Source: Bdellovibrionales bacterium (GTDB lineage: Bacteria > Bdellovibrionota > Bdellovibrionia > Bdellovibrionales > UBA1609). Taken from it: a stretch of DNA of 64,000 nucleotides. Positions within the stretch are counted from its first letter, which is position 1. Every line of letters begins with the position of its first letter. Positions 763 through 56,131 of this stretch are shown one piece after another. The position numbers and the translations under genes were made by a program. The stretch is taken from positions 30,035 through 94,034 of the forward strand of contig JBFWON010000001.1 of assembly GCA_050250515.1 (NCBI GenBank). The letters run 5' to 3'. The notes beneath the pieces were generated by a model, which was given only the letters and a program-made list of their open reading frames with translations, searched no databases and was not told the DNA's origin.

Positions 763-772
763 AGAGGTCACC

Positions 773-7065: not shown

Positions 7066-7110
7066 CATCCGCGTCATGACCGTATTCGCCGGATTTCGTA
7101 ATGTCTTCGC

Positions 7111-8637
7111 ATGGTCAAAAACAGCGTTTTGATTCTGGATTTTGGGTCGCAGTACACCCAGCTCATCGCTCGTCGTTGTCGGGAGCTTGGAGTGTTCTCA
7201 GAACTTTTACCCTTCGATACTTCTATTGAAGATCTCAAATCTCGTGAGCCTGTGGCTTTGGTTTTGAGCGGAGGACCAAACTCGGTCTACGACTCGACCT
7301 CTCCCACCCGTGATATAAAACCACTTCTTGAATTGGCTCCCGTGCTGGGCATTTGTTACGGAATGCAGCTCCTGGCTCATCAAATGGGTGGCAAAGTGGA
7401 GCGAGCGGGCAGTCGTGAATACGGTTTGAACCGGGTCAAATGGTCCAAAGTCCTTTCTGGTGTTCCCGCCGATCAAAAGGTTTGGATGAGCCATGGAGAT
7501 GTGATTACAAAAACTCCTCCCGGAGTCGAAGTTGTCGCCCAATCGAGTTATCAGCACCCGGCGGCCATGATGGGTGAGAAATTCTGGGGTGTGCAGTTTC
7601 ATCCTGAGGTAGCGCACACCGAAGGTGGGGTGGATTTCCTTCGCCATTTTCTCTTCGACTTTTGTCAGGCGCGGAAAAATTGGTCGGTGGCGAAAATTGA
7701 AGAGCATCTTCTTTTGGATATTCGCACGCGCGTAAGTGACGATGAGTCCGTTTTGTGTGCTTTAAGTGGTGGCGTGGATTCGACCGTGGTGGCCACGCTC
7801 CTCACCCGCGCGCTGGGGCCCGACCGAGTGAAGTGCGTTTTTGTAGACACCGGGCTGTTGCGTAAAGATGAATTCGCCAAGGTAAAAAGCATGTATGGCG
7901 AATTGGGTTTGAATGTGACGGGGGTTGAGGCGCAGGCGGATTTTCTTGATCGCTTAGCGGGCGTCGAGGATCCAGAACAAAAACGTAAGATTATCGGTCA
8001 TGTCTTTATCGAAGTTTTTAAGAAAGCCTTCGTTCAGGTGGGGCAGTGCGACTGGTTGGCCCAAGGGACCCTGTATCCCGATGTCATTGAGTCGGTCAGT
8101 CCGCGGGGAACCAGTGTGACGATCAAATCTCACCACAACGTGGGGGGCCTACCAAAAGATCTGGGCTTAAAATTGATTGAACCCTTGCGAGAACTTTTCA
8201 AAGACGAAGTTCGACGAATAGGTGAAGATTTAGGGATTCCGCATAAATTCATTTGGCGCCACCCGTTTCCGGGGCCAGGATTGGCGATTCGAATTCTAGG
8301 CCCAGTCAATAAAGAAGATCTCGATATTTTGCGCGAAGTGGATGATATCTATATCACCGAACTACAAACCAAAGGTCTTTACGACAAAATTTGGCAGGCC
8401 TTTTGTGTGCTTTTGCCGATTCGCACGGTGGGAGTACAAGGGGACAGTCGCACGTATGACCGCGTGGTGGCCATCCGGGCGGTGACCTCCAGCGACGGGA
8501 TGACGGCCGATTGGTACCCATTTGAACCAGAGTTTATGGCCCATCTTTCCAATCGGATCACCAACGAGGTGAATGGAGTCAATCGAGTGGTTTACGATGT
8601 GACATCTAAGCCCCCGGGCACGATTGAATGGGAGTGA
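7111..8637 (+). CDS. guaA: GMP synthase (glutamine-hydrolysing)
   Basis: GATase GICYGMQ...HPE, ATP-PPase SGGVDS, C-terminal PPGTIEWE. Confidence 0.95.
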   Translation: MVKNSVLILDFGSQYTQLIARRCRELGVFSELLPFDTSIEDLKSREPVALVLSGGPNSVYDSTSPTRDIKPLLELAPVLGICYGMQLLAHQMGGKVERAGSREYGLNRVKWSKVLSGVPADQKVWMSHGDVITKTPPGVEVVAQSSYQHPAAMMGEKFWGVQFHPEVAHTEGGVDFLRHFLFDFCQARKNWSVAKIEEHLLLDIRTRVSDDESVLCALSGGVDSTVVATLLTRALGPDRVKCVFVDTGLLRKDEFAKVKSMYGELGLNVTGVEAQADFLDRLAGVEDPEQKRKIIGHVFIEVFKKAFVQVGQCDWLAQGTLYPDVIESVSPRGTSVTIKSHHNVGGLPKDLGLKLIEPLRELFKDEVRRIGEDLGIPHKFIWRHPFPGPGLAIRILGPVNKEDLDILREVDDIYITELQTKGLYDKIWQAFCVLLPIRTVGVQGDSRTYDRVVAIRAVTSSDGMTADWYPFEPEFMAHLSNRITNEVNGVNRVVYDVTSKPPGTIEWE

Positions 8638-8638
8638 G

Positions 8639-11600
8639 ATGTCTTTTGTCCACTTGCACGTTCACTCTCAATACTCGCTGCTAGAGGCCACTTGTCGAGT
8701 GAAAGCCTTGGCCAAGCGGGCGGCCGAGTACAAAATGCCAGCGGTCGCCCTAACAGACCTTGGCAATATGTTTGGCGCGATCGAGTTTTATTTTGCCTGT
8801 CGGGATGCCGGAGTGAACCCGATCATAGGCCTGGAAGTATTTTTAGCGCCCAAGTCGCGACATGAAAAACATCAGGAGGGTGAACCCCTTCGGCGATTGG
8901 TTCTTCTTGCGCAGAATCTCGAAGGCTACCGCAACCTTTGCCGTCTTTCGAGTGCGGGGTTCCAAGAGGGATTTTACTATCGACCCCGAGTCGACTATGA
9001 ACTCATTGCCCAAAACAGCGAGAATATCCTGGCTCTCACGGGCGGGTGGATGGGCGACGTGCCATCTCTCTTCCGTGACAAAGGTCCCGATGCGGCGAAT
9101 GCCAGAATTGAGGATCTTCGCAAAATTTTTGGCGATCGACTGTACTTGGAGCTCAATCGGACGGGTGTTCAAGGCTGGGATCCGATCAACAGTTTTTTGT
9201 GTGAGGTAGGAAAGCAAAAGGGTATAAAAACCGTGGCCGCTGCCGATGTCCATTATGTAGTGCCCGAGGATCAACTGGCGCAAGAAGTTCTGGTTTGTAT
9301 CGGTACCAATCGAACGCTTCAGGATGAAAGTCGATACAAGTTAGGTAGCGATCAGTTCTATTTTAAATCCTCGCAAGAAATGAGCGATCTCTTTCGAGAT
9401 TTGCCGGAAGCCATTGAAAATACGAATCTTGTAGCAGATCGGTGCGCGGTCAAGTTCACCCTGAAGGACGCAAGTGGCGCGCCCATCTATCATTTGCCAA
9501 GTTATCCCACGGAGGGAGGCACCAGTCTCACCGATGAGATCCGTCGTCTTTCGATGGCGGGTCTTGAGCGGCGAATGGAAGAGGCCGAAAAACGCGGTGA
9601 AGGAATTCCCCAAGAAAACCGGCAGAAGTACCGAGATCGACTGGAGTATGAACTCGGTGTGATTGATAAAATGGGGTTCAACGGATACTTCCTCATCGTT
9701 CAAGATTTTATTGGTTGGGCTAAGGATCACGACATCCCTGTGGGGCCGGGGCGGGGATCGGGAGCAGGCTCCCTAGTCGCCTACTCCTTACGAATTACTG
9801 ATTTAGATCCAATGCCTTACAATCTCATCTTCGAGCGCTTTTTGAATCCCGAGCGGATCAGCATGCCCGACTTTGATATCGACTTTTGTCAAGAGCACCG
9901 AGGGCGGGTGATTGAATACGTCACGCAGAAATATGGAGCGCAGTCGGTCTCGCAGATCATCACCTACGGACGTTTGCAGGCGCGTGCTGCGATTCGAGAT
10001 GTGGGCCGAGTGTTAGGAATGACCTATGCGGAGGTCGACATTGTCGCCAAGCTAGTGCCTGAGAAAATCGGCATCAACTTGGATGAAGCCATTGAGATGG
10101 AACCAAGACTTAAAGAGCTGATGGAACTCGACCCTAAAGTGAATATGCTTATGGAGATTGCCCGTCGGATCGAAGGTCTGGTCCGCCATGCGGGAATTCA
10201 TGCGGCCGGCGTGATCATTGCTGACGGCAATATTATGGACCATGCGCCGCTGTATCGCGGGGTCGATGGCGAAAACGTAGTCCAGTTCGATATGAAGCAC
10301 GCGGAGAAAATCGGACTGATCAAGTTCGACTTCTTGGGTCTAAAAACTCTCACACATATTCAAGAAGCCCTCGACCTGATCAAAACCAATCGTGGCAAAT
10401 TTTTCTCCGTCCAGGATATCTCTCTCTTTGACCCTGGTATCTACAGCATCATGTGCAAAGGGGACACGGCTGGGATTTTCCAGTTTGAGGGTGAGGGCAT
10501 TACAGACCTGATTCGAAAAGCCCGACCTTCCTGTTTTGAGGACATTGTCGCCATTAACGCTCTTTATCGTCCAGGTCCGATGGATATGATTCCGGACTAT
10601 CTGGCCCGCAAACACGGTGAGAAAAAGGTCTCTTACCTTTTTCCGCAACTTGAGGAAGTTTTAAAAGAGACTTACGGAGTTATCGTATACCAAGAGCAGG
10701 TTCAGTTGGTCGCGGCACGAATCGCCAACTATAGTTTGGGCGAAGCCGATATGCTCCGCCGCGCGATGGGTAAGAAAATCGCTGAAGAAATGGCGGTTCA
10801 AAAGAAGCGCTTTTTGAAAGGCGCCGCAGAGAATCAGCACGACTCAAGTAAAGCCGAACAGCTCTTTGACCTAATGGCGGAGTTTGCCAAATACGGATTC
10901 AATAAATCTCATGCGGCCGCCTATTGTGTTGTGGCGGCTCAAACGGCCTGGTTGAAAAACTATTATCCGGTCGAATTTTATGCCGCACTCCTTAGCGTGG
11001 AGATGAGCGACACCGACAAGATTGTTAAATACGTTAAGGACGCTCAGTCGCATCAAATAGAAATCGTACCAGCCCATGTGAATCACTCCAATTATCGATT
11101 CTCGGTTCAAGGCGAAAAAATCCTCTTTAGTCTTGGTGCGATCAAAGGCGTAGGCGAAGGCGCCGTGCAGGCTATTGTCGAAGCTCGCGAATCCATGCCA
11201 GAGAAAAAGTTCGCCACCCTGGACGAATTCTTCGATAAAGTGGATTTGAAAAAAGTGAATAAAAAAACTATCGAAGCCTTGATTAAAGCGGGAGCCTTAG
11301 ATGGTTTTGGGTACAACCGAAATGAGATCTCGAGTGGTTACAGCCAATTTGTCGAGCGGAGTGAAGTCGTTCGGCAAGATCGCGAGGTCGGCCAGGCGTC
11401 GCTATTCGATTTGGATGACTCCACGTCAGAGGAGCAGCAAGTTCAGTTGGCCCATATGCCCGATTGGAGCCGGGGAGTGTCGCTGGCTTTCGAAAAGGAG
11501 GTTTTGGGATTTTACCTAACGGATCATCCTTTGCGTGGGATGGAGTCTCTCGGTCGCTTTCTCGGTGTGCGCTCAATTCAAGCGCTGGCTTCTGAGAGCG

Positions 11601-33972: not shown

Positions 33973-36900
33973 CTACTGCAGCGCTGCCTCGCAGGGGGAA
34001 TTCACGGTCCTTGGTTCGACTTGCGCAATAGGTGCGTCGGCCGGGATTTCAACCGAGGCATACTGTTTCGCCTTGCGCTCTTTCGCGATCTCATTGATAT
34101 CGGCCATCTTAGATGGAACGAGGACACCGTTTTCAAATTCGATACTGAGATCGTGAGCTGGCTTAGCCGCTGAAGACCAAGGCCAAAGAGAAGCCAATGA
34201 CCAACCCTTGCGCTTCTTAGGGGCCGCAGCACTAGGCTTTACCAACTCGGCCGTCTGGTAGAACTCTTGGAGCTTCTTTGCGTCCATTTCACCCAGCTCC
34301 GCAAGTTTGGCGCCCATTGGAATCAAACCATTTTTGAAATTAGCCTCGAGGGAAGCGCGCGCGAGAGCCTCGCCTTCTTCTAAAAGACTTTGAACTTCAG
34401 CCTCCAACTTTTGTTTGGCGGATTCAGATAAAGTCCCAATGTACTCCTGGACCTGCCAGCCGGAGGGAACGGCGTAATTGCCCCAAGTTCGGCCTAAGCC
34501 GTACTTAATCACGGCGTCTTGAGCCATTCGGGTGGCCCGTTCAAGGTCATTGCTCTTACCGGCCGAATCGCGGCCTCCTTTGACCACGAGCTGCTCGGCT
34601 ACGTAGCCGGCCGCGAGAACAGCAATCTGGCGCACGAAGTATTCCCGCGTGTAGGAGATTTCTTTGCTCTTTTCATATTGAGCGACACCGGCGTAGTAGA
34701 TCCATCGATCGCCAATGCGTGAGACACCGGGGATTACAGAAATCTTGACGCCGTCGAAGGCCCCTTCGAAAAGAATTCGTCGGACGAGTTCGTGACCGGC
34801 TTCATGATAAGCGGTGACAAGCTGCTCAGAAAGATTTCGCTCGAGAGATTTTTCGACGTAGGGTCTTCGAATTTTGAGCGAAAGAATTTCGGACTGACCT
34901 TCAACGGACACTTCGTAATTTACATATCCAGGGTTATGTTCGTCGTGATTCGAGGTCTTTTCTTTGAATTTAACCAAAACTTTGGCCCCGCTAGGAACCT
35001 TGTTCTGCAAAAGCAAATTCTTAAGTGGTTCCTCCACGTCGTCGCGAACAAAGCTCTCAATCGAAGCCCCTTGGTAACGAAGGGAGAATCCTTCCTCGAC
35101 CACCGTATCAATGAAATCGCTGTATTCCTGCTGGGTCGGGAAAAGGACCTTCCATCCCCGTCGACTGTCCGTCGAGCTCAGTCTTTTCAAAGCTTGACCC
35201 AACTTCAACTGGGCCAGCTGTCGGAGAGAGCGGTAGTTATGAGGTGGCATAAAGAAAATATTGTTGCGGCCAATCCGGGTGATCAACGGCTCTGGATAGT
35301 ATTTCTCAAGAACTTGGCGCTGGAGCTCAGGGTCATTTTGTGTTTGACGAGCGATCTCTTCCCAAGCGTACATCTGAACCGCCATTGGAACATCACGGGG
35401 CACGCCGCTATAGAGTTCCTGGCCGGGGTTTCCGGTGACAACGACGGTCACCCCACCCATGGGTCGGGCTTTTCCATCTGAGAACGTGTGCATCACCGGC
35501 TCGCGGAAGAAATCGTATAGGGCCTTGAGCAAATCCATATCGCGAACGTTGGCGAGTTCGTCGAAGGCGACGATCAACTTTCCACCATTACGGTCATAAT
35601 GCTTCATAAATTCAGAGGGAATGGCATTTCCCGCGCCATCCTTTAGCCCCAGAATCTTAACTTTGAAGTCATGCAGCGTCTGAATCTGGGAGAAATCGAA
35701 GGTGATAAGTTCATCATCTGACTTTCGCACCAGTCGAGCCAACTGTTTCGCGGTTTCTGTTTTACCTGTACTGGATAGTCCATTGAGCATTATGACGTTT
35801 ACAGGACGGGACGAGGAGCCCTGACTTTCATTTTCAATATTAAGAATGCGCTGAGCAATTCGCTCCACCACCTCATCGATACCAAAAACGTGCTGTTTCA
35901 ATTGGCCGGCGAGACCAGCGAGCTCCTCGATGCGGCTGTCGGAAATCGGCTCCGCAGGGATGTCTTTCAGCGTCGCACGGATCAGCTGGCGAAGGTTTTT
36001 CTTTTGACCTCCGCCCTCGGCTTCAATCACCAAGCTGAGAGTACGATCGTCGTTGCTCGCAATCGAGAGTTTTATCTTGAGTCGCTCAGCCTGAGGTAAA
36101 CGGCCTTCCCTCAGGGCATCGATCAACGGCTGCTCGACTAAGCTGGCCAATCGACCAAAGATGGGTCGAGCATTCTCCTCTGGGGAGTAGTCGTACCCCT
36201 GAACCATTTTTAGGACGTCGGGTCCCCATTCCAGGTGGATTTTGCCAATCATATCCGAATCACTCATCTTGCGACTGAGATCCTCGAGGCCGATCTTTGC
36301 GATCTTTTGCAAATCCTCGGGAGAGAGGGGCCGCATCAGAAGAACTAAATCGTCGGGGACCCGGTTGAGCATTTCTTCGGAAATTCCAGGTTTAGATTCG
36401 TCACGATCAGCGCCGTTGGCTCGACCATTGGTGGCTAGAATTTCGGCTTTAAGAGCCGCCTTATTGTGATGAACATGCTCCCATTTGGCGAGGATCTGCT
36501 CGTACGACATCGGCTTTCCATGCCGTTGGCCGTTGGATTCTCGCGAAGTGACAAGACCAATACCTTCATTCGAGGCAATGACGAAGCGGATAGGGACGAA
36601 GATCTCAGATAGGCCTCCGTTCGGGTTGTTGATCGTGAATCGGCCCTTTTCAAGGGCTTCTTTCAAAAACTGATCCTTCATTGATTTGGACCAGTTGTGA
36701 AATTCATTTACAAATACAATGCCGGTGTTGGGAGGGAAGTAACCTTGTAAAGTCTCACCCTTAAAGTCCTTGTTTTCGAGGACCTTGTAGGTCTCTTTGC
36801 CGCTGCCAGTGCCCTGAGTTTTCTCGATTTTGTATCTTCCACCGGAATGTTGAACGAGGAATTCCAGAAATGGCGGGAAATTGTCCGAACCTACATAGCC

Positions 36901-37848
36901 TGTGGCGGAGCCCAAAAGTTGCCACAGGTCCGCGTTGGCCCGAAGTTTCGGCATGCGAAACATATGTTTCCGATGAGCCATCTTAAATCCATGAAGGGCA
37001 TCGGTCAGCACTTCAGCGGCCGTATCTTTACCTGTTCCAGGTAGGCCCATTAGATAAATCACGTCGGGTAGGGCCCGGGACTTTTCATAAAGCTGCGCCC
37101 GCCATTCGAGATCGACAAGGGCTTGAATCACTTCTGGTTGGCCGACAATTCGAGCTTCCAGATAATCTTGGAAGCGTTTCATGTAGGCGTCACCTCTTTG
37201 GCTTTTGCCAATGATGTGATTGATGTGATCGTTAAGATCCAAAAGAGGTGTGCGATTGTTCTCTAAAATTTTGTAGGTGAAAACCAATTGGCGGGTGGTC
37301 CCGTCGTCGGTGGGATCGACCAGACCTAAGCGTGCGACGTGCTCTTCGATTACATCCGTTAATTCTTCAAGGTAGCGCGACGGAGAAGCAGTTCCAATTT
37401 TAGCCATTGTATCTAGAGCTAGGGCCATGACCTCAAGACTGCCTTTACCATTGTCTTTAAGGCCACGTTTCATCTCGTTGCGCAGGACTGCGAAAAGCGC
37501 TTCCACCGCTTCTTGTGTTTGGTACTGACCAAGCGCCGAAACTCGATAGAGTGGAATCGCATTGTTGTTGGATCGACCTAAGACCTCTTTCAAGAAGGCG
37601 AGGTCCTCATTCAGCATATCTCGAAGAGCTTCTAAATCGGCCTGATCCAGGGATTTAATGTACTCGGTAGTGTAGACCGTGGATTCTTCGTTCCCATCTT
37701 TGGTCCAACCCTCAGAAGAAAAGGCCAGAGCCCAGACTGACAAGCAAACCAGTGCTAATTTTTTCACGAATTCCCCTCTCACCCTTTTTACTGATCCACC
37801 CCGGATCCTGAGAGGCTGTGCTATCGAATGCTTAGAGAGAGTGTCCAC
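33973..37848 (-). CDS. Large fusion protein: signal-like N-terminus, helical region, two ClpB-D2-type AAA+ modules, FtsH-type M41 zinc peptidase domain
   Basis: Module 1: IVGQPEVIQAL, GLPGTGKD, IVFVNEF, NARPI. Module 2: GLSSTGKT, IVAFDEL. M41: TAYHEAGHELV and GKSNDLERATRMAQDAV. Likely start is the GTG at 37767, after GAGAGGGG, giving MKKLALVCLSVWALAFSS. Confidence 0.8.
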   Translation of the reverse strand: MDTLSKHSIAQPLRIRGGSVKRVRGEFVKKLALVCLSVWALAFSSEGWTKDGNEESTVYTTEYIKSLDQADLEALRDMLNEDLAFLKEVLGRSNNNAIPLYRVSALGQYQTQEAVEALFAVLRNEMKRGLKDNGKGSLEVMALALDTMAKIGTASPSRYLEELTDVIEEHVARLGLVDPTDDGTTRQLVFTYKILENNRTPLLDLNDHINHIIGKSQRGDAYMKRFQDYLEARIVGQPEVIQALVDLEWRAQLYEKSRALPDVIYLMGLPGTGKDTAAEVLTDALHGFKMAHRKHMFRMPKLRANADLWQLLGSATGYVGSDNFPPFLEFLVQHSGGRYKIEKTQGTGSGKETYKVLENKDFKGETLQGYFPPNTGIVFVNEFHNWSKSMKDQFLKEALEKGRFTINNPNGGLSEIFVPIRFVIASNEGIGLVTSRESNGQRHGKPMSYEQILAKWEHVHHNKAALKAEILATNGRANGADRDESKPGISEEMLNRVPDDLVLLMRPLSPEDLQKIAKIGLEDLSRKMSDSDMIGKIHLEWGPDVLKMVQGYDYSPEENARPIFGRLASLVEQPLIDALREGRLPQAERLKIKLSIASNDDRTLSLVIEAEGGGQKKNLRQLIRATLKDIPAEPISDSRIEELAGLAGQLKQHVFGIDEVVERIAQRILNIENESQGSSSRPVNVIMLNGLSSTGKTETAKQLARLVRKSDDELITFDFSQIQTLHDFKVKILGLKDGAGNAIPSEFMKHYDRNGGKLIVAFDELANVRDMDLLKALYDFFREPVMHTFSDGKARPMGGVTVVVTGNPGQELYSGVPRDVPMAVQMYAWEEIARQTQNDPELQRQVLEKYYPEPLITRIGRNNIFFMPPHNYRSLRQLAQLKLGQALKRLSSTDSRRGWKVLFPTQQEYSDFIDTVVEEGFSLRYQGASIESFVRDDVEEPLKNLLLQNKVPSGAKVLVKFKEKTSNHDEHNPGYVNYEVSVEGQSEILSLKIRRPYVEKSLERNLSEQLVTAYHEAGHELVRRILFEGAFDGVKISVIPGVSRIGDRWIYYAGVAQYEKSKEISYTREYFVRQIAVLAAGYVAEQLVVKGGRDSAGKSNDLERATRMAQDAVIKYGLGRTWGNYAVPSGWQVQEYIGTLSESAKQKLEAEVQSLLEEGEALARASLEANFKNGLIPMGAKLAELGEMDAKKLQEFYQTAELVKPSAAAPKKRKGWSLASLWPWSSAAKPAHDLSIEFENGVLVPSKMADINEIAKERKAKQYASVEIPADAPIAQVEPRTVNSPCEAALQ

Positions 37849-38062: not shown

Positions 38063-38605
38063 TTACAAAATCAAACGACGCAGTTCTTCCTGAGAGTAGA
38101 GGTAATCGGCGTAGACCATCGTGTTGGTGATGTTGCGATGACCTAGGGCCACCTGCACTAAACGCAGATCTTTGGTCTTCTTATACAGACGAATGGCGAA
38201 AGTATGTCGGAGGCAGTGAAGCTTCTTCTGCACGGGGCGATAGTGCTCCCAAATCTGTCGAAGGCGATTGTAGGAGATCGGAAACAAGTGATGATCTTGA
38301 GCGCGCTCCACCTCGCGCTGAAGCTTTTGAAAGAGCCAAGACGGTAGCGGGAGCTCCCGATCATTACTGCCCTTGAGTCCGTGAATGAACACGGATTCTT
38401 CATAACTATTCAGGTCCTCGACCTTAATATTCAAAACCTCACGAGCTCGGGCGCCCGTGTTGAGTAGAGTCCAGAGCAGTGTGCAGTTGCGCGGCTCCTG
38501 GTCCTGAAACGAGTGAAGAATGTGGACCAATCGATCGTGTTCCGGATCCAAGAGGTACTTATTTTTGTTGAGAGCATACCGGACTCTCGACGAGGCACTG
38601 GCCAT
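38063..38605 (-). mobile_element. Short tyrosine recombinase (catalytic domain only, 180 aa)
   Basis: GARAREV (Arg), HCLRHTF (HxxR), LGHRN (His), VYADY (Tyr). There is no N-terminal core-binding domain. Confidence 0.8.
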
Positions 38606-38643
38606 TTTTTGAAACTCCCGCGTGTGGAAAATCTATATATAAA

Positions 38644-38840
38644 ATAAGTTTATACGCCTTGAGCCAATCGGCGATTTCACTCGATGAGGGGAGTTTCTGA
38701 TTCAATTGGGCGACGATATTCAAGATAAGTCAACCACTTAGCACTGTAACTTATAGTTATAAGTGGTAGCTCAATTTGGAATCACCCTCACTTCTACCTA
38801 TTGAGCCATCCAGGCTCATTGATACATAAGTTGTAACCAC
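38644..38840. repeat. Cluster of short direct and inverted repeats in the AT-rich spacer next to the recombinase
   Basis: ATAAGT at 38644, 38725, 38759 and 38826; ACTTAT at 38749. ATAAGTCAACCAC (38725-38737) against ATAAGTTGTAACCAC (38826-38840). CCACTTA (38734) paired with TAAGTGG (38760). GCTCAAT (38769) paired with ATTGAGC (38800). Confidence 0.7.
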
Positions 38841-38937
38841 CCAGGCCCGTACCAAATAATTGTACTTTACAACGCTTTATCGTGTGATTCACAATTTAAA
38901 GAGGTGAAATACAACACGATGTTCGAGGGGGTTCCGC

Positions 38938-39423
38938 TTGGATTTTCATCTTGAGGACCACAGCTTCCAGGGGGTCGACCCATCGCCGGGTCGAAGCAAG
39001 ACGTCTCAGCGTTTAAAATACGAGGCGGAAATCAGGGTTTTTCGATCGAAATATGGGGGCCTTGAACAGGTCCGCCAGGGGATGGGCCTCACCCGTCGAA
39101 AGATTTGCCAGCTTTTAATGGTGGATCCTTCGGCATGGACAAGATGGCTACGGGATGAGGACAAAGTTCCGCCCGCCATCTATAGATCACTCGAAAGCAT
39201 GATTCTTTTGAATGAAAAGAACCCGGATTTGATGCGAGTTTTAGGGTCCAGGGTCAGTCAAAGCCTGGGGATCGAAAAAAGCTCGGAACTAAAGTTGAAA
39301 ATCGAGCATCTTGAGGCCGAATTAGACGCCTTAAAGTCTAAAAACCTAGCCTCCACGGCCAAAGCTATGACGCTTTTGATAGGTCTATTCTTTCTGGCGA
39401 TCCTGGTGCTGCTGATGCGGTAG
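38938..39423 (+). CDS. Membrane-anchored XRE/MqsA-type HTH protein (HTH, coiled coil, C-terminal TM)
   Basis: TTG start 7 nt after GAGGGG. GLTRRKICQLLMVDPSAWTRWLRDEDKVPPAIYRSLESMILLNEKNPDL resembles the MqsA/YiaG HTH. Tail LLIGLFFLAILVLLM. Confidence 0.45.
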   Translation: MDFHLEDHSFQGVDPSPGRSKTSQRLKYEAEIRVFRSKYGGLEQVRQGMGLTRRKICQLLMVDPSAWTRWLRDEDKVPPAIYRSLESMILLNEKNPDLMRVLGSRVSQSLGIEKSSELKLKIEHLEAELDALKSKNLASTAKAMTLLIGLFFLAILVLLMR

Positions 39424-40363
39424 AGCTCGAGCTTGTTAAATCCCGGAGGACGGATTTTCCAAATAAAACATAGCTGTCATTCACATGGGCGCTGGCCGCA
39501 AAATTCGGTTTTTGCATTAGGGTCCTGTGGGCCGTCGGTAAGTTGTAGCTTGGAATGGCAGGGTAGAGATGATGGCAAAGATGCAGGTTTACGTTGTGGG
39601 GCGAAAATAAGGAATTTTCAAGAGGGCCAGAGGTGATATCTCGAGAAGAATTCAATTCATGCTCCCGAGGCAGGCCAAAATGTTCCCCCACGCTTCGAAT
39701 TCTTTGCAGCAGAGGAAAGACCAGAAAGAGCGGTGCGATCCAATACAGAAAAACCATAGACCACCCGTGCAAGGCGGTAATGATCGTTGCCGCTAAAGCA
39801 AAGAATAAAGTCTTCTTAATCAAGCGCTTGCGTAACATTGAACTTGTAAAGGTCTCTCGTCGAGTCAGACCCGAATAAAATAGAACGATCTGACACCACT
39901 CTTTTAATCCGGCGAAAATCATAAAATAAGGTAAAAAAGCTGCGATTTTTGCTTTCGTGACCGGAAAATTCCATTCGGCGAGATCCTTTTTTCGAATCCA
40001 GTCAGGATCCTTGTCCGTATTCAGATGTTCGTGGTGACGGTAATGAGTTTCTCGATAAGTGTCCATATCGAAGAGGACTGGATAGGCCGCAAGCCAATTG
40101 GCAATTCGATCGTTCCATCGTTTTCGAGCCGCCAGATGTTTGTGCACCCCTTCGTGGACCATAATAAAAAGTCCATGTTGGCGTCCCGCAATCACGAGGA
40201 CTGCAAGTAGATAGATCCAGATGTTGTTTGCTTGCTCAGAGAGAGTCGCCATTCCTAATATGATGATCCAATCCTGTAGGAGTAGCAACCAGCTCTTCCA
40301 AAATTTGGGTCTAGTTAAATCTTGAAGCTCTGCCTTAGTAAAAAAAGTTTGTCCTGCACTCAT
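39365..40363 (-). CDS. Membrane fatty-acid desaturase family protein (three His boxes)
   Basis: HEGVH, HYRHHEH, HLCHH. TM helices. Starts 6 nt downstream of the GNAT-like gene. Confidence 0.8.
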   Translation of the reverse strand: MSAGQTFFTKAELQDLTRPKFWKSWLLLLQDWIIILGMATLSEQANNIWIYLLAVLVIAGRQHGLFIMVHEGVHKHLAARKRWNDRIANWLAAYPVLFDMDTYRETHYRHHEHLNTDKDPDWIRKKDLAEWNFPVTKAKIAAFLPYFMIFAGLKEWCQIVLFYSGLTRRETFTSSMLRKRLIKKTLFFALAATIITALHGWSMVFLYWIAPLFLVFPLLQRIRSVGEHFGLPREHELNSSRDITSGPLENSLFSPHNVNLHLCHHLYPAIPSYNLPTAHRTLMQKPNFAASAHVNDSYVLFGKSVLRDLTSSSSTASAAPGSPERIDLSKAS

Positions 40364-40369
40364 ATTGAA

Positions 40370-41074
40370 CTAAGCCGCCTTCGGAAATGTCGCAGATTCG
40401 AAGCGACCGACTGTTCGTTCCCCATGAACGACCCGTCGTTCCCACAGATTTTCTACAAACTGGCTGACCTCCGCAGTTTTCCCTAAAACGGCCGTCTTTC
40501 GATCAATGGCGATGATGTCCACTTCGACATTGTGCTGTGAGTAGCCGGACTTTAGGCATTTAGCACCATGCCCGTAGCAAAGTTGGTTCACTTTTCGATC
40601 ATTGCGAGTGTAAGCAATCAGGTGGTCACAATCCGAGGATAAGAATCGCTTACATCCGAGCCCTATCAGACCATCTGCAATGATGCCGTTGTTCACTTTG
40701 CGCCACTCGGGCACCACGGCTAAATTCCCCATACTCATAACCAGGTGGGCGCCTAGTTCCTTGAGTTGGGCAAGCGTTTCTGGTGGGTAAGCTTTGAAGT
40801 ACGAATGATTGAGGTGGGATCTCAATTGGAAATTGTGCCATCCATAGCAGAAAACTCCAATGACACGATTGCCCTCGAAGATAGCCGTGACTTCGTCCTG
40901 TCGGTCAAATTCGTCAGAAAAGAGGTGTTCAAGTCCCTTAATTTCTCTAAACGTTTGTGACCAGATGGTGTGCCAACAATCGTAGACCCTTTCGTATAGG
41001 GCCACGGCTTCCTGATGGTCTTGCCATCGATCTGTAAATATATGATAAGATAGGGATTGTGGTAATTTGCTCAT
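40370..41074 (-). CDS. GNAT-fold N-acyltransferase resembling N-acyl amino acid synthase / LuxI-like / bacterial ceramide synthase families
   Basis: SDEFDRQDEVTAIFEGNRVIGVF...MGNLAVVPEWRK...ADGLIG pattern. ATG at 41074 follows GGAG with an 8-nt spacer; the track start is 41128. The family call is tentative. Confidence 0.5.
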   Translation of the reverse strand: MSKLPQSLSYHIFTDRWQDHQEAVALYERVYDCWHTIWSQTFREIKGLEHLFSDEFDRQDEVTAIFEGNRVIGVFCYGWHNFQLRSHLNHSYFKAYPPETLAQLKELGAHLVMSMGNLAVVPEWRKVNNGIIADGLIGLGCKRFLSSDCDHLIAYTRNDRKVNQLCYGHGAKCLKSGYSQHNVEVDIIAIDRKTAVLGKTAEVSQFVENLWERRVVHGERTVGRFESATFPKAA

Positions 41075-41207
41075 GCTTTTTTCTCCGGCCATAATTGTCG
41101 GTTGGAAAAGCATTTGGATTGAGGCCAATAAACAACTCTAGGACTAATTCTGGCCATTCCGAAGGAGCCATTTGCCTGGCGGACCGCGGCATGCTAGTTT
41201 TCATGAA

Positions 41208-41963
41208 ATGAACAATTTAGCCCTTTCTCAAAATCTTTTTAAGTTTAACGAGGGAATCTCCTTCTTAGATGAGTTTGTCCATTTGTCGTCCCGAGTTTCG
41301 GAATTGGCAAATGAGGTGGGCATTCAAATAACCCCTTTCCGCAATTCGAATCTTCCGCACTTTTCGCGAAAATCCGAGGAGGAAAAGAGCCGCGTTATTT
41401 GGGATCTTCGAAACTACGTAACGGTTTGTGAGAAGGTCCAGGATGATGGGGGCGACCTCAAGGATCCCGTCACTGTTACATGGATGGCTATAAAAGAAAT
41501 GGGTATGCGCCCACCTTCTGATTTATTTTCCCATATCACGGCTGACAATGTGATTGAATTTCACAACCAGGATGGGATTCAGATTTTCCGAAATTTTCAT
41601 TTTTATCAGTATTGCAGCTATTCTTTGGAGGAGCTCTACTGTTTTCCGTGGAGCACGCTCTATTCAAGGAATGAAGAGGCGCTCAATTCATTACTTCGGA
41701 TATTTGGGAGTTTTTACTGTGGTGAAATGAAGACCGGAGTAAGGACGGGTATTGCTCCACACATTATCGAAGAGATTTACTCTCCCTTTAAATACAAAAT
41801 TTATGCAAGCCAGGATTATGCGGCCCCGTTGTTTGATCTTACGGGGCGTCCTATTGCCTCTATTATAGTCGAGACGGGTAGGTTAGTGAACGCCCCTCTG
41901 TCTCCTGAGGAAGAGGAGCGTATTTTGTTGAATCATCAGAGCTATTTCGATTTCCAACTCTAA
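41208..41963 (+). CDS. Hypothetical protein with PAS-like C-terminal half and no output domain
   Basis: DNVIEFHNQDGIQIFRNFHFYQYCSYSLEELYCFPWSTLY...DLTGRPIASIIVETGRLV fits a PAS-fold spacing pattern. Locally AT-rich. Track start is 41172. Confidence 0.4.
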   Translation: MNNLALSQNLFKFNEGISFLDEFVHLSSRVSELANEVGIQITPFRNSNLPHFSRKSEEEKSRVIWDLRNYVTVCEKVQDDGGDLKDPVTVTWMAIKEMGMRPPSDLFSHITADNVIEFHNQDGIQIFRNFHFYQYCSYSLEELYCFPWSTLYSRNEEALNSLLRIFGSFYCGEMKTGVRTGIAPHIIEEIYSPFKYKIYASQDYAAPLFDLTGRPIASIIVETGRLVNAPLSPEEEERILLNHQSYFDFQL

Positions 41964-42607
41964 ACGGCCCGTCGAATCGACTTTGTCTCCGCTAGTTCTT
42001 TACTCTTGATAAGCACTTCTCGATAGAGGTCGCTCGAAAGATCGAGGTTCTCCATCGCGAGCTTGGCTTCATCTTGGTTGAGTTTATCCATGTTCCGAAA
42101 GGCTTCGTCGAGATGTCCTACGTCGGCTTCACTGTGAAGTTTGATGAATTTGGCGGATTGGGGGCCGTGCGCATCATGGACTCTTTTGTGAATTTCTGGA
42201 CCATAGTATTCGGCGATAGCTTCAAGTGCCAAGGTGTAACCAAAAAATGAAGCTGCGTTCAGATGTTGAATCCAATAGTACTGAACTTGATACATCGCTT
42301 GCGACGGGGCCAGGGCAGGGATGTCGGAGGGCTGATAGCCGAGCGCTTTCAGATCGGAAATGGCGATGAGTTGATGACCACGCTCCTCTTTTGAGTGATC
42401 AACGAATCGTTCGTGCAAGAAGCTTCTCTCGATTGGGGCGTAGGCACCTGCCAGCGCCACTAATCGGGTCGAATGGTTGACCATATAGAATGTTTGTCCT
42501 AGCCAGATGGCGTACGCTTCCCTGTTTTCCCACGGATAATCGTGAATAAAAGGTCCTGTCTTATCCATCTGCTGTTTGGCGGCCTCGCGAAAATTGATCA
42601 TATTCAC
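41960..42607 (-). CDS. Heme-oxygenase-like di-iron oxidase (iron-containing redox enzyme family)
   Basis: All-helical, 215 aa. Ligand motifs EERGH (ExxH), LALEAIAE, HSEADVGH (Hx3Dx2H), as in the CADD/UndA/SznF-type HDO family. Confidence 0.65.
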   Translation of the reverse strand: MNMINFREAAKQQMDKTGPFIHDYPWENREAYAIWLGQTFYMVNHSTRLVALAGAYAPIERSFLHERFVDHSKEERGHQLIAISDLKALGYQPSDIPALAPSQAMYQVQYYWIQHLNAASFFGYTLALEAIAEYYGPEIHKRVHDAHGPQSAKFIKLHSEADVGHLDEAFRNMDKLNQDEAKLAMENLDLSSDLYREVLIKSKELAETKSIRRAV

Positions 42608-42793: not shown

Positions 42794-45412
42794 ATGTGGA
42801 ATTCACGGAGGATTCGAGTGGTCCGCCTATTGATGGTTGCGGTTTTGTTTCTGTTCAATACCACGTGCACGCGGTCAGTCCCCAATGTCTCGCTGCGCTT
42901 ATCGATTCCGGCGCCTTCGGGGCTAGCGGACTTAGATGCGAATGATCTACTGGAAGTGGTCATCGTTAATATTCATATTCCGGGAAAGCCTCTCCTAGTG
43001 CGCGAGTTCAATTTTGAAAACCAGTCGATTCCATTGGGGCAGGACTTAAATCTAGATATAAACGACGTCCCCGCCGGATCAGGGGTTTTCGTTCAAGTGC
43101 TAACGGTTTATTCCAATCAGGTGAACGGCGTCTTTAAGTTTTTATATGGTGATGCGACCACCACGGTTTCATCGGGTGCGCCTCCCGTGGAAATTACGGC
43201 GGCCAATGCGGGAGCTTCGGATCGGATGATCCGATTGGCCGGGCGAATTTTGACCTCGACGGTGCCTGACGCAGGACCAACCGGGGTCCTCATCGCTCAG
43301 TTCCAGCCGCCCAACGGCAAGCCTTATATGAGCGTAGACAAAACTCCCATAGTGAATGGTTGGTTTCAAGCGTTTGCCATCGACTCGACGACCGCCGGAT
43401 TTCGCTACGTCATGGGCGATACGGTGGTCTTTGACAATTTGAATTCGCAATCGCCGGCACTGGCGACCTCGAACTCTCGACTTCAGGTGCGAAAACCGGT
43501 CAGTGCCCGCCGAGATAATAGCCAGACGCGCATGGACCCCGAAACGGACTACTACTTAGGCTTTTGGGGGGCAGGGAGCGGAAAGCAAGTGTGCTACGTG
43601 GACACCCATGAAGCTCTGCTCAATATTTACACCGACGCGACGTTGACGACGCCTCTCGAATATCGAAATACGGGTGCGACCACTGCCAATGTCCGCCCGG
43701 TGGCAGGAGGGAGTGCTGAATCTAACTATGGCGTCTTTGCCACTGCAGGATCAACCTGCACCAATCCGCAACTGCTCTCCGGCGATGCTCTTATTTTCCA
43801 CAATCAATATGCCAATGACGAGCGAGACTACGCGGGATTCCGAGTGCCCTATCAGGCACTGCGGCCATTCACTCTTCGCCCAAGCTATCTGATAGGCGAT
43901 TACTTCACGGGGCCTGATCGCTGGGAAATTAAGTGGAAATATCTGCCAGGGGCGGCTGTGACGGGATTGGGAACTGAAATTTGGGCCAAGTACGAAGCCA
44001 ATGGCGGGGGCGGTGGTGGCAAGAATGAATGCTCTCGATTAACAGAACAAGGATATCAACTGATCTCCTCCGTCGCCGCACCAACTGAAACTTACAGCTT
44101 TACGGGAGTCCCTGGCCAGCCCATGACTGCTGCCAATCGATATGATTTCCGAATTGCGGCCTGCGCTTATTATGAAGCTCCACAAGGACGCACTCAGTTG
44201 GGCGAGTACATTGAGGCCAATTGCTTAGGATCCAATTGCGGCGAAACGGAACACTTTGGTTGGGGTGTGAGTAATAAAACCATTTCGGGCGGGCAATTCT
44301 TTGATTCATTAACTCCTATCTCTGGAAAATCGCAAAGAGTCACTGGGGCCATTGCTAGCTTTGATAACTACACCTCACTCGCCGTGGGCTCGGAAGTCGG
44401 ATTTTTTTCGGGCCAAGAGGCTCTCGTTTTGGTGAACGGTGCGGGTAGCGCCACCGACTGTGGCTCGTATCAGGGGCAAACAATTGATGTGGGAACTTTT
44501 GGCTTTGCTCGAATCTTAAGTACCGGCACGGGGGAGATTCGAATCAGTAAAGGAACTTTCTTGGACGGAATCACGACGACGAATTTGTCGGCCGCGGCCA
44601 CGACTTCGACCTTTTGTTATGTGCAAATTGTCCAAATGATCCACTTTCGGGACATCACAATCACCGGTGGTCCCGCCAACTTGACCTTGGGAGCTGCATT
44701 TGATTATGGCGCGGGCGGCGGAGGCGTCATCGCCTTTCGGGCCAATGGAACACTCAATTTGGGCACCAGCGGAGATAAGATTGATGTATCCGCCAAAGGT
44801 TATCCTGGAGCGGACAGCACTAACGCCAATGGCGGCGGAGATCGACGTGCCCCCATCGGGTCGGGAATCAACCACATGGGCGGTCAGTACGGACTCGACG
44901 CAAGCGGAGGAGCCGGCTTCGGTGGCGGTGGGTCTGGTGCCATTACGACTGGAGGCATTGCCAGAACAGAAACCAATCAGGGGCTTCGTCTGGTCTTTGG
45001 GGGCGGCGCTGCAAGTAGTGGAGGCAGTGCCAATATGGGCCAAGGTGGCGGAATCGTCTTTATTGCGGCGAAGGAAATTGTCAGCGAGGGCGGCGGAGCG
45101 ATTTACGCCGATGGCGCGGGCTCAACGAGCTACAGTGGAGCTGGTGGTGGAAGCATTAACTTGATCACCAAAAAACTTTCGAAAGGCGCCTCCACTGGGG
45201 GAGTTAACTATTTGGCTCGTGGCGGAGACTCCAGTGCCACCAATAGTGGGGGCGGTGGTGGAGGCTTCGTTTCTGTGATTGCCTGCGCGAATGATCTGGC
45301 TTCAACGAATCTTCAAACCCTCGGTGGCGCGTTGACCGGTAGTGGTGTTGCCGGGTCGACAGGTTCAACTTCCGCCTATCCCAGCGCCACTAACTATGGG
45401 ATCTGCCGTTGA
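42794..45412 (+). CDS. Large secreted glycine-rich protein with beta-helix-like C-terminal repeats
   Basis: Hydrophobic N-terminus (LLMVAVLFLFNTTC). Repeated GGGG-hydrophobic rungs (GGGGVIAFRANG, GQGGGIVFIAAK, GGGAIYADG, GAGGGSINLI, GGGGGGFVSVIA). Confidence 0.6.
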   Translation: MWNSRRIRVVRLLMVAVLFLFNTTCTRSVPNVSLRLSIPAPSGLADLDANDLLEVVIVNIHIPGKPLLVREFNFENQSIPLGQDLNLDINDVPAGSGVFVQVLTVYSNQVNGVFKFLYGDATTTVSSGAPPVEITAANAGASDRMIRLAGRILTSTVPDAGPTGVLIAQFQPPNGKPYMSVDKTPIVNGWFQAFAIDSTTAGFRYVMGDTVVFDNLNSQSPALATSNSRLQVRKPVSARRDNSQTRMDPETDYYLGFWGAGSGKQVCYVDTHEALLNIYTDATLTTPLEYRNTGATTANVRPVAGGSAESNYGVFATAGSTCTNPQLLSGDALIFHNQYANDERDYAGFRVPYQALRPFTLRPSYLIGDYFTGPDRWEIKWKYLPGAAVTGLGTEIWAKYEANGGGGGGKNECSRLTEQGYQLISSVAAPTETYSFTGVPGQPMTAANRYDFRIAACAYYEAPQGRTQLGEYIEANCLGSNCGETEHFGWGVSNKTISGGQFFDSLTPISGKSQRVTGAIASFDNYTSLAVGSEVGFFSGQEALVLVNGAGSATDCGSYQGQTIDVGTFGFARILSTGTGEIRISKGTFLDGITTTNLSAAATTSTFCYVQIVQMIHFRDITITGGPANLTLGAAFDYGAGGGGVIAFRANGTLNLGTSGDKIDVSAKGYPGADSTNANGGGDRRAPIGSGINHMGGQYGLDASGGAGFGGGGSGAITTGGIARTETNQGLRLVFGGGAASSGGSANMGQGGGIVFIAAKEIVSEGGGAIYADGAGSTSYSGAGGGSINLITKKLSKGASTGGVNYLARGGDSSATNSGGGGGGFVSVIACANDLASTNLQTLGGALTGSGVAGSTGSTSAYPSATNYGICR

Positions 45413-55515: not shown

Positions 55516-56097
55516 ATGAAATACAACCCGCGGGACCGATTTTTTCAAAAGGCTAAGGACGAGGGATTTCGGGCACGTTCGGCTTATAAGCTGAAGGAGA
55601 TTCAGCAGAAATTTCGCCTGATCAAATCGGGTGACTTGGTTGTGGACCTAGGGGCGGCCCCCGGGGCCTGGAGCCAAGTGGCCCTGCAATCGTCCAGCCC
55701 CAATGGACTTGTTGTAGGTCTTGATCTCAAAGAGATCGATTGGAAGGCGCCCAACGCTCGATTCTATCAAATGAATGTTTTTGAGTTTGATCCCGGCATC
55801 TTGGAGAACCGTAAACCAGATGTTCTATTAAGTGACATGGCTCCCAATACCACGGGCCATCGAAGCGTGGATCAAGCACGGAGTTTAGAGCTTTGCTCGG
55901 CCGTTTTAGATCTCGCAGTTGAACATCTTAAGCCCGGCGGACACTGTGTTATGAAAGTTTTCGAAGGACCAGAGTCAAAGACCTTGGACAAGCGAATGAC
56001 GGGAATGTTTAAGGAAGTAAAACGCTACATACCTGAAGCGGTTCGCAAAGGAAGCATTGAACTTTACCTGGTTGGGCTCAAAAAAAAGGATCTCTGA
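55516..56097 (+). CDS. rlmE: 23S rRNA (uridine2552-2'-O)-methyltransferase RlmE/FtsJ
   Basis: RSAYKL, DLGAAPGAWSQ, LSDMAPN, and a K-D-K-E tetrad context. Confidence 0.9.
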   Translation: MKYNPRDRFFQKAKDEGFRARSAYKLKEIQQKFRLIKSGDLVVDLGAAPGAWSQVALQSSSPNGLVVGLDLKEIDWKAPNARFYQMNVFEFDPGILENRKPDVLLSDMAPNTTGHRSVDQARSLELCSAVLDLAVEHLKPGGHCVMKVFEGPESKTLDKRMTGMFKEVKRYIPEAVRKGSIELYLVGLKKKDL

Positions 56098-56131
56098 TAA
56101 GTTATATTATGTTGCACTCGATATTTGTCGG

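Follow-up and report, generated by a model that had tools for sequence, protein, structure and literature searches.

The locus examined here combines a 180-aa tyrosine recombinase with a repeat-containing spacer and a divergently oriented neighbour, and raises the question of which DNA this small enzyme acts upon and to what end. A preliminary description of the window (i.e. the whole stretch of 64,000 nucleotides of Bdellovibrionales DNA that was analysed) had considered (i) a FimB/FimE-type DNA switch and (ii) the remnant of an integration event. In this study, the locus was compared with more than 80 related loci, and the order and orientation of the spacer elements were read in 64 species. 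A literature search identified no paper on this recombinase gene.

A recombinase consisting of the catalytic domain

The recombinase gene (38063..38605, minus strand) is an intact open reading frame, and residues 21–168 of its 180-aa product matched the Pfam Phage_integrase model PF00589 with an E-value of 5.6e-21 (75.5 bits against a cutoff of 27.1 bits). Residues R53, K78, H130, R133, H156 and Y165 (R-K-H-R-H-Y) showed no change among 16 homologues, in agreement with the initial reading of a catalytic-domain enzyme with all signature residues, and the PF00589 score together with the full R...K...HxxR...H/W...Y set assigns the protein to the tyrosine recombinase superfamily. The protein represents the catalytic domain alone, beginning at approximately residue 20, without the N-terminal core-binding (SAM-like) domain; no remnants of a lost core-binding domain were detected upstream of the gene, where the spacer is made up of conserved non-coding blocks. 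Approximately 215 clusters of relatives were identified, almost all of 165–200 aa. The nearest solved structures were those of XerA, XerH and XerD, and the matches to the structure model agree with the recombinase fold; however, as the AlphaFold model was of mediocre quality (pLDDT 71.8) and the TM-scores were just 0.34–0.39, no more was drawn from it. Among cultured phages, the search returned generic integrases at approximately 30% identity only.

Inheritance of the recombinase and its divergent partner

Hundreds of homologues of 175–181 aa with 63–80% identity were found, all named ones belonging to the Bdellovibrionota. The gene was single-copy in each of the 80 distinct genomes retrieved, with a dN/dS of 0.03–0.07 that indicates strong purifying selection, and a divergent gene for a helix-turn-helix (HTH) protein lay beside it in 71 of 84 loci, plus 17 further metagenomic loci. 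The recombinase thus belongs to the core genes of Bdellovibrio-type predators, and the pair, together with the spacer layout, is inherited vertically as a single copy per sampled genome under strong purifying selection. For the recombinase orthologue of strain HD100, the cluster examined for a coordinate contained short metagenomic contigs only. The window neighbours on the far side of the spacer, which encode the HTH protein, a desaturase-like protein, a haem-oxygenase-like protein and a protein of 870–880 aa, are syntenic in related genomes.

Two departures from this arrangement are counted against the reading of the locus as a recombination module that is developed below. In the L049 group and in L099, genes have been inserted between the pair, and the palindromic site described in the next section remains with the HTH gene, not with the recombinase; in addition, four loci possess the recombinase but neither the site nor the HTH gene nearby.

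A conserved palindrome within the spacer

The spacer (38606–38937, 332 nt) has a G+C content of 40.7%, against approximately 50% for the window, and had been described as the longest non-coding stretch of the latter, whereas it ranks as the fifth-longest gap on a crude map of open reading frames of at least 90 aa. All five reported copies of ATAAGT/ACTTAT were located in it (at 38644, 38725, 38749, 38759 and 38826); the 25 copies in the 64-kb window correspond to an expectation of approximately 0.13 per 332 nt, and 24 of 2000 dinucleotide shuffles of the spacer (approximately 1%) gave five or more.

Among the five hexamers, those at 38749 and 38759 alone belong to a deeply conserved element, which is a 28-bp palindrome, ACTGTAACTTATA GT TATAAGTGGTAGC, at 38743..38770, with GT at its centre (38756–38757). 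This palindromic core recombination site lies approximately 140 nt from the recombinase start codon, occurs once in the whole window, and is conserved in 47 loci as the pattern ACTn5TTATA-NN-TATAAn5AGT. Crossover would be expected within the central TAGTTA (38754–38759). The arms co-vary: double changes number 36, compared with 17.8 in shuffles (none of 500 shuffles being as high), and 82% of cells are paired across the two arms, which is the outcome expected of selection by one homodimeric binder. Between species, the 2-nt centre alone flips while the flanks are constant. A match to the palindrome in locus L045 lies inside a coding region and was treated as a chance match.

The adjoining 14 nt (38729..38742), which read GCTAAGTGGTTGAC in the recombinase sense and have the consensus AGTnnTAAGTnnTTGA across 47 loci, constitute a conserved flank of the core site that comprises an additional TAAGT half-site, at a distance of 13 nt from the closer palindrome arm, followed by TTGAC. 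Of the two short inverted pairs pointed out previously, both of which are present, CCACTTA/TAAGTGG corresponds to one palindrome arm and the conserved adjoining half-site, whereas GCTCAAT/ATTGAGC was found in this window alone. A similar division applies to two other features of the preliminary description: both copies of the composite ATAAGT..AACCAC repeat are present but are not kept in the closest relatives, and the TTGTAA-18-AATAAT promoter match exists, although its -35 hexamer TTGTAA is likewise not kept there. In these relatives an alternative promoter-like pair, TTTACA at 38866 and CACAAT at 38890, is invariant.

Two further blocks were delimited in the spacer. Close to the recombinase start, the stretch 38611..38658 (minus strand), which 15 relatives from the window clade have kept, reads GCGT(C/A)TAAA-n5-TTTTATATA...CGCGGGAG in the recombinase sense and probably holds the recombinase promoter, or a 5' leader, and the ribosome-binding site. 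Block B (38818..38829), ATTGATACATAA or TTATGTATCAAT in the recombinase sense, is near-invariant in the window clade; the clade of the genus Bdellovibrio is without it and has GTCAAGCTAAGTCATTGAAAC instead. The possibility of a structured RNA in the spacer was rejected on the grounds that Rfam gave no credible match, RNAalifold on 15 relatives yielded -0.45 kcal/mol for one strand and -3.2 kcal/mol for the other, and the palindrome contains G:T and A:C mismatches in balanced numbers (21 versus 23).

Phage-derived elements integrate at the palindrome centre

The palindrome, which is present in the window in an empty, uninterrupted form, is occupied in one related locus. The loci L103 (empty) and L102 (occupied) are approximately 99% identical on either side, up to the palindrome centre, and it is exactly at this centre that L102 carries a 9.4-kb phage-derived element flanked by a 12-bp direct repeat, TAGTTATAAGTG. 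The element encodes an integrase that is 43% identical to the window recombinase (E-value 4e-40), as well as a truncated terminase and an endolysin, while the resident recombinase gene of L102 lies outside the inserted DNA. Additionally, attP-like sites with the same core, TAGTTATAA, occur near short recombinase genes on the viral contig L085, where the attP-int arrangement matches that of gene and site at the present locus, and on the metagenomic contig L236. The conserved flank of the core site (38729..38742) is reproduced in the attP arms of the element, as seen in the attL of L102 and in the L236 site. Family members with 36–51% identity were also found in phage-like contigs.

Mobile phage-derived elements with paralogous mini recombinases therefore integrate exactly at the palindrome centre, and the L102/L103 pair together with the attP-like sites on two element contigs establishes the palindrome as a genuine recombination site for the mini recombinase family. 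An occupied site with direct repeats and an empty counterpart were thus found for this site and a paralogous enzyme, as distinct from the enzyme of the window; the palindrome is acted on by the element-encoded paralogues and may also be acted on by the resident enzyme. The earlier proposal that the recombinase works through site-specific recombination or binding at the spacer repeats is sustained to the extent that an ACTTAT/ATAAGT pair forms the core of the 28-bp site and that relatives of the enzyme integrate there. A scan of metagenomes with element-type integrases revealed no second occupied site, and a scan of viral contigs for CTTATAGTTATAAG returned 120 chance matches, none of which was accompanied by a related recombinase. 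The integrated example is therefore a single one, a fact that we also count against the module reading.

The HTH partner and its putative operators

The divergent gene (38938..39423, plus strand) encodes a protein of 161 aa which, according to HTH family matches and homologue sequences, comprises an XRE/MqsA-type HTH (approximately residues 42–90), a coiled-coil stretch and a C-terminal transmembrane helix. Its start codon is TTG, with ATG at the aligned position in the L005 homologue. Three operator-like pseudo-palindromes extend over its promoter (38860..38914, plus strand), namely TTGTACTTTACA at 38860–71, GTGTGATTCACA at 38882–93 and GGTGAAATACAA at 38903–14, and coincide in part with this gene's conserved TTTACA-18-CACAAT promoter-like pair. 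Exactly three sites are present in 31 of 64 loci, and 71 of 96 measured spacings are 20–23 bp. Elsewhere in the window the motif is not enriched (seven matches against 4.6 expected), and it is absent from the element and phage loci searched. The HTH protein is predicted to bind the three sites.

A relationship of the partner to the Xer activation factor XafT / VC1465 was considered and rejected, as the protein scored 20.1 bits against a family cutoff of 70 bits. Among 20 partner proteins, seven matched the XafT / VC1465 model weakly (best E-value 1.3e-4), while 12 matched an MqsA-type HTH model better, so that the likeness to XafT is attributed to a generic XRE-type HTH.

Proximity to dif and probably to the replication terminus

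A canonical XerCD dif site, ATCTCTGATAAGTTATATTATGTTGCAC, is located between convergent genes at 56089..56116 (plus strand) and includes a 19-nt stretch identical to the published dif of Bdellovibrio bacteriovorus HD100. The locus lies 17.5 kb from this site and is probably near the replication terminus; the cumulative GC-skew maximum of the window falls at approximately 50–56 kb, and the recombinase gene is found at 48.6–50.2% of the chromosome in six of ten complete Bdellovibrio genomes, positions that assume a start at the origin and come from the non-independent genomes of one genus. For B. bacteriovorus, xerC, xerD and dif have been reported. The palindrome system is consequently not XerCD's replacement for chromosome dimer resolution, and a second resolution system is not obviously needed. 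Comparison of the sequences also led us to reject the idea that the palindrome might be another XerCD dif, its inner arms being CTTA..TAAG as opposed to ATAA..TTAT.

Proposed function and competing explanations

We favour, at slightly better than even confidence, the view that the Bdellovibrionota possess in this locus a conserved chromosomal module for site-specific recombination, which is neither a switch nor an island scar. Its parts would be the 180-aa Xer-like catalytic-domain recombinase, the divergent membrane-anchored XRE-type HTH protein and the structured spacer between them. It is marginally probable, to a similar degree, that the palindrome is the substrate of the resident recombinase, which would bind the two symmetric arms as its own core site and exchange strands across the central TAGTTA, while the HTH protein would act via the three operators as a repressor of its own promoter, and its further roles might include gating or assisting the recombinase. 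As each chromosome carries one site and this has no inverted counterpart, recombination could take place between sister copies or with an attP partner. The former, which would amount to the resolution of chromosome multimers and agrees with the position near dif, is our favoured reaction for the resident enzyme, put forward tentatively and with considerable doubt; the latter could serve to integrate or excise an element or to police the site.

The two explanations offered at the outset both appear very improbable. In a FimB/FimE-type phase switch, the recombinase would flip a promoter-bearing segment of the spacer and so toggle the gene at 38938, an idea in keeping with a small single-domain protein, with the short inverted pairs and promoter-like match of the spacer and with the size of the latter, 332 nt being close to that of fimS. 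However, a computed search of 33–47 kb gave chance-level inverted and direct matches only, as the failure to find long flanking repeats by eye had suggested, and the single palindrome has no inverted partner; furthermore, the conserved spacer blocks follow one another in one order, and face the same way, in all 64 species as well as in the three independent assemblies available for this organism. With neither an inverted-repeat pair nor an orientation variant in this material, the switch is unsupported. The candidate promoter is not conserved, the palindrome centre alone flips between fixed flanks, and the invertase models NF007370 and NF007371 scored 33.7 and 32.2 bits against cutoffs of 221 and 222 bits, respectively. 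Equally hard to credit is a recent integration in which the recombinase mobilised the adjacent cassette (approximately 38.9–45.4 kb) and lies at the end of the resulting island: a slight dip in G+C from 38 to 42 kb and the adjoining genes of unknown function would suit it, but there are no island-end repeats, no tRNA gene lies close to the locus, and the palindrome is uninterrupted. The comparison with related genomes that had been proposed for defining the island boundaries instead revealed the downstream genes to be syntenic, and the recombinase, with its constant partner, is the single-copy, constrained and vertically inherited gene described above.

A less easily dismissed, though still unlikely, alternative is that an ancient prophage integration module, made up of an integrase, a repressor-like HTH protein and an att site, has been domesticated and survives as a relic that now forms a guarded landing pad and has no role in the chromosome cycle; the chief task of the resident enzyme would then be to excise elements, to block them or to help them, while repressor-type immunity would come from the HTH protein. 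The family members in phage-like contigs, the match of the gene-site layout to attP-int in L085 and the use of the site by an element all argue in this direction, and the arrangement of three operators in tandem across a divergent promoter recalls phage immunity regions. Against it, the site is a symmetric palindrome with co-varying arms instead of a hybrid attL/attR, the identity of 63–80% across named families and the low dN/dS suggest a host function, the operator motif is missing from element and phage loci, and neither the recombinase nor the HTH protein matched any PADLOC defence model. We regard it as somewhat less likely again that the recombinase, or the pair, serves mainly as DNA-binding regulators, with the palindrome as an operator or architectural site and no strand exchange in normal host life. 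The palindrome does lie between two divergent genes, just upstream of the conserved TTGAC motif, and keeps with the HTH gene after insertions, and some tyrosine recombinase sites also serve as promoters, as in the case of Tn4430 IRS/TnpI. Nevertheless, a pure DNA binder would not need the six invariant catalytic residues, including the tyrosine, paralogues recombine at the palindrome, and the operators have no sequence in common with it, so that one HTH specificity cannot account for both. Finally, the module reading may be extended to a second, Xer-independent recombination system by the terminus of the Bdellovibrionota chromosome, in which the minimal 180-aa recombinase, the 28-bp palindrome and the membrane-tethered HTH partner would resolve chromosome multimers and would be parasitised by phages with a captured mini recombinase. 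The Bdellovibrio predator replicates many chromosome copies in one filament prior to synchronous septation, and the HTH partner could supply DNA targeting or activation, as the septum-anchored FtsK-gamma or the phage protein XafT does for XerD; this extension is speculative, and we consider it improbable.

Comparison with known systems

The locus most closely recalls XerS/difSL of streptococci and XerH/difH of Helicobacter and Campylobacter, in which one Xer-like gene is similarly linked to an imperfect palindrome of 28–31 bp; these systems lie in the terminus region, where the present locus is probably also situated, and the solved catalytic domains closest to that of the mini recombinase are, as stated, of XerA, XerH and XerD. 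XerS has approximately 356 aa. Unlike the mini recombinase, XerS and XerH (the latter with 363 aa in PDB 5jjv) have an N-terminal core-binding domain of approximately 100 aa; moreover, the present locus differs from these systems in coexisting with a canonical XerCD-type dif and in having a conserved membrane-anchored HTH partner. Tyrosine recombinases are generally considered to need the core-binding domain as a DNA clamp, the small fimbrial invertases being the known exception. A family of 165–200-aa enzymes nevertheless appears to perform integration, and one of its members has become established in the core genome of a phylum; the family thus offers a natural minimal system for what the catalytic domain alone does and what a separate HTH partner adds. 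The locus is, in addition, a conserved feature that has so far gone unstudied, probably close to the terminus, in a bacterium whose multi-chromosome cell cycle is unusual, and the natural attachment site and small integrases could serve as genetic tools in these predators.

Those invertases (FimB/FimE, MrpI and HbiF) are functional at approximately 200 aa with little beyond the catalytic domain, and their genes adjoin the target DNA, as here; the similarity of FimB/FimE to the mini recombinase is weak, as the above scores attest, and the locus, unlike theirs, is without an invertible segment, flanking inverted repeats or orientation polymorphism. TnpI of Tn4430 is a 284-aa, transposon-borne tyrosine resolvase that resolves cointegrates at a site upstream of its own gene. 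Its IRS resembles the present spacer in combining a palindromic core with directly repeated accessory half-sites upstream of the recombinase gene, overlapping the control region, whereas the module described here is a conserved chromosomal locus with an additional HTH partner. Integrative elements of the IMEX type (CTX-phi, TLC-phi and gokushovirus prophages) are likewise phage-derived and use a conserved host site, there terminus-proximal and here probably so, by means of a mimicking attP; they rely only on the host enzyme, while the elements observed here bring their own paralogous mini recombinase, and the target in the present case is not dif. The HTH partner, for its part, is comparable to XafT / VC1465 in that a small HTH protein is encoded beside an Xer-type recombination function, and is distinguished from it by the C-terminal membrane anchor.

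A conserved recombinase and its divergent partner

The tyrosine recombinase gene (38063-38605, minus strand) and the divergent gene for a helix-turn-helix (HTH) protein (161 aa; 38938-39423, plus strand) constitute a conserved chromosomal module, and between them lies a genuine recombination site that is used by related mobile elements. The recombinase has 180 aa and the catalytic domain PF00589 as its sole domain (residues 21-168, E 5.6e-21), in agreement with the preliminary description, and the signature catalytic residues reported there are indeed in place, R53, K78, H130, R133, H156 and Y165 being invariant in 16 homologues. The predicted structure model of the enzyme was of modest quality, and a literature search found no paper on the gene. 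Hundreds of relatives of 175-181 aa share 63-80% identity with the enzyme, those that are named all belonging to Bdellovibrionales, Pseudobdellovibrionaceae, Bdellovibrio or Oligoflexia, and a scan of species-representative genomes yielded 217. An exhaustive profile search returned 215 clusters (50% identity) at E <1e-30, nearly all of 165-200 aa, which indicates, as judged by length, that the short recombinase is the norm of its family and not a truncated form.

The 80 recombinase loci that were kept derive from 80 different assemblies with one copy in each, and dN/dS was 0.03-0.07 (read only where dS was unsaturated). Recombinase and HTH partner are a core gene pair, and the proposal that the recombinase marks an integrated island was abandoned. 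The partner lies divergent to the recombinase at 71 of 84 loci and at 17 further metagenomic loci; in nine of the 13 exceptions the sequence upstream of the recombinase is shorter than 1 kb, while in the other four the flanks are complete and the recombinase has no site nearby. The partner comprises an XRE/MqsA-type HTH, a variable coiled-coil stretch and a C-terminal hydrophobic helix. Long lysine-rich tails replace this helix in the homologues of four loci (L022, L039, L042 and L075), and a membrane anchor is therefore not universal. Assignment of the partner to the XafT family was rejected (20 bits against a 70-bit cutoff), the weak match being to a generic HTH.

Organisation of the intergenic spacer

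The spacer (38606-38937) measures 332 nt and has 40.7% G+C, compared to approximately 50% for the window; it is not the longest non-coding stretch, as had been supposed, since a crude ORF map contains four longer gaps. The five reported copies of ATAAGT/ACTTAT were confirmed against approximately 0.13 expected, and a shuffling check, in which dinucleotides were preserved, reached such a count in 24 of 2000 shuffles. The short inverted pairs are present as described. Likewise, the composite repeat and the promoter-like match facing the HTH gene exist, but the former, and the TTGTAA -35 hexamer of the latter, lie in sequence that is not conserved among relatives. A search for longer flanking repeats, of the kind proposed in the preliminary description, found none between 33 and 47 kb, and the only tRNA gene of the window is at 16.8 kb.

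Conservation was assessed by aligning the spacers of 64 loci and, in more detail, those of the 15 closest. Adjoining the HTH gene are three pseudo-palindromes of operator-like appearance, related to TGTGAAATACAA (38860-71, 38882-93 and 38903-14), which overlap a promoter-like TTTACA-18-CACAAT shared without change by close relatives; exactly three such sites occur in 31 of the 64 loci, mostly spaced by 20-23 bp, and no enrichment of the motif was found elsewhere in the window. Additionally, an 11-codon ATG ORF (38919-38954) runs across the TTG start codon of the HTH gene in a different frame; the AGAGGTG ahead of it is at once a good Shine-Dalgarno-like sequence and operator 1. The block TTATGTATCAAT (38818-38829) is specific to the window clade, and a further conserved block adjoins the recombinase start. 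Between these lies a block of approximately 55 nt centred on a 28-bp palindrome, ACTn5TTATA-NN-TATAAn5AGT (38743-38770), after which come another TAAGT half-site and TTGA(C).

The order and orientation of the spacer blocks are the same in every species aligned, three independent assemblies of this organism do not differ in the spacer, and invertase models scored far below their cutoffs, so that neither the identity of the enzyme as a DNA invertase nor the suggested FimB/FimE-type invertible switch is supported.

The palindrome occurs once in the window. Its arms co-vary, with 82% of cells paired and 36 double changes compared to 17.8 in shuffles, none of 500 of which reached 36. No strand bias was found among the palindrome mismatches and no conserved RNA fold in the spacer, which points to the symmetry being a property of the DNA or of protein binding. 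Only the central dinucleotide of the palindrome (38756-38757) alternates across 47 loci (GT in 29, AC in 16 and GC in two), while the flanking sequence is unchanged between related species. Palindromes are known to undergo loop flips or template switches, and such behaviour would account for the alternation, with the GC centre as a possible intermediate.

Inserted genes part the recombinase from the site in two clades, in which the site remains with the HTH gene. A secreted ParB-like nuclease gene (PF08857) lies between palindrome block and recombinase in L049 (2878-3765), L051, L057, L058 and L059, and an unrelated 176-aa gene does so in the Oligoflexia MAG locus L099 (4397-4927); in the L049 group and L099, operators and palindrome both remain with the HTH gene.

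Insertion of an element at the palindrome

Two MAG loci, L102 and L103, have an identical recombinase and common downstream synteny. In L103 the HTH gene, operators, palindrome (ACTCTCACTTATA GT TATAAATGAGACT) and recombinase are contiguous, whereas in L102 a 9.4-kb segment (547-9939 of GCA_019637915.1, JAHBUV010000001.1), flanked by TAGTTATAAGTG, splits the site into two halves. The left junction reads GACTCTCACTTA-TAGTTATAAGTG-TGAGTATTAAGTACTTGAAATT and the right junction TACTTTAACAG-TAGTTATAAGTG-AGACTATTAAGTACTTGATTTT, and near-identity between the two loci ends on each side exactly at the palindrome centre. The segment encodes its own recombinase of the short family, which shares 43% identity with the window enzyme (E 4e-40), along with a fragment of a terminase large subunit, an SLT transglycosylase/endolysin and an acetyltransferase, and is read as a decayed prophage. 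The integrase gene call of this element is 279 aa, of which the first ~70 residues look doubtful.

Furthermore, a 176-aa recombinase with 51% identity to the window enzyme is found on the viral contig L085, where an attP-like TAGTTATAA lies approximately 250 nt upstream of the gene; the left flank that precedes this sequence resembles the L102 element arm. Three tandem copies of GTCACATA (2713-2742) precede this site and may represent arm-type binding sites for the mini integrase. The metagenomic contig L236 carries an attP-like CCGTC-TAGTTATAA-ACTAAACTGCTAAGTAGCTGA near its 48%-identical recombinase, and more distant family members are located among phage-like genes. Taken together, the occupied and empty pair (L102 being the one occupied site found), the attP-like sites and the phage-like settings show that the palindrome centre is where elements are integrated by mini recombinases of this family. 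The conserved TAAGT..TTGA flank is reproduced in the element arms, suggesting that this flank is functional.

Replication terminus and possible function

A canonical XerCD-type dif, ATCTCTGATAAGTTATATTATGTTGCAC (56089-56116), was located in a 34-nt gap between convergent FtsJ-like methyltransferase and Ser/Thr kinase genes. Over a 19-nt stretch it is identical to the predicted dif of B. bacteriovorus HD100 (PMC2731167), which places the replication terminus within the window; the cumulative GC skew maximum in the window falls at ~50-56 kb, and the recombinase is 17.5 kb from dif. In six of ten complete Bdellovibrio chromosomes the recombinase is positioned at 48.6-50.2% of the sequence, which agrees with a terminus position only if the records start at the origin. 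Both xerC and xerD have been reported in B. bacteriovorus (PMC11318664).

The resident enzyme would bind and recombine the same palindrome, because it has kept every catalytic residue and co-variation preserves the symmetry of the arms, a symmetry that would be absent from a relic hybrid att site. The three operators would serve the HTH protein in autoregulation. As each chromosome has a single site, this may recombine either with its sister copy or with an attP partner. We favour a resolution-type role, given the location at the terminus and the growth of these predators as filaments with many chromosomes, although this is the weakest step. Live alternatives are that the module was domesticated from a phage and polices the site, or that its role is mainly in regulation.

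In logic, the module comes closest to single-Xer systems with a gene-linked site (XerS/difSL, XerH/difH) and to the use that mobile elements make of dif; FimB/FimE is closest in size, and TnpI/IRS of Tn4430 is what we take to be the nearest known site layout. The module nevertheless departs from each in a defining feature, as it has no core-binding domain, a canonical dif alongside and no invertible segment, and is not element-encoded.

Neighbouring genes

Synteny around the pair is partly kept in the closest genomes. The product of the next gene (33973-37848, minus strand) is 1291 aa long and combines two AAA+ modules and a ClpB D2-small domain with an M41 (FtsH-type) peptidase domain at the C-terminus; it weakly matches the PADLOC models DolB and PDC-M37B, and the same gene is found beside the recombinase in the related locus L004. 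The region 39365-42607, whose synteny is partly kept in related genomes, may represent a small set of genes for tailoring or biosynthesis. It encodes a membrane desaturase/hydroxylase-family protein (best match the guanitoxin GntB arginine hydroxylase model, E 5.6e-44, below cutoff), a Haem_oxygenase_2-type iron enzyme and two proteins without a family match. Finally, an 872-aa protein without a family match (42794-45412, plus strand) begins with a signal-like stretch and contains repeats rich in glycine (GGGGG runs), and ~880-aa homologues occupy the same position in the related loci L001 and L002.
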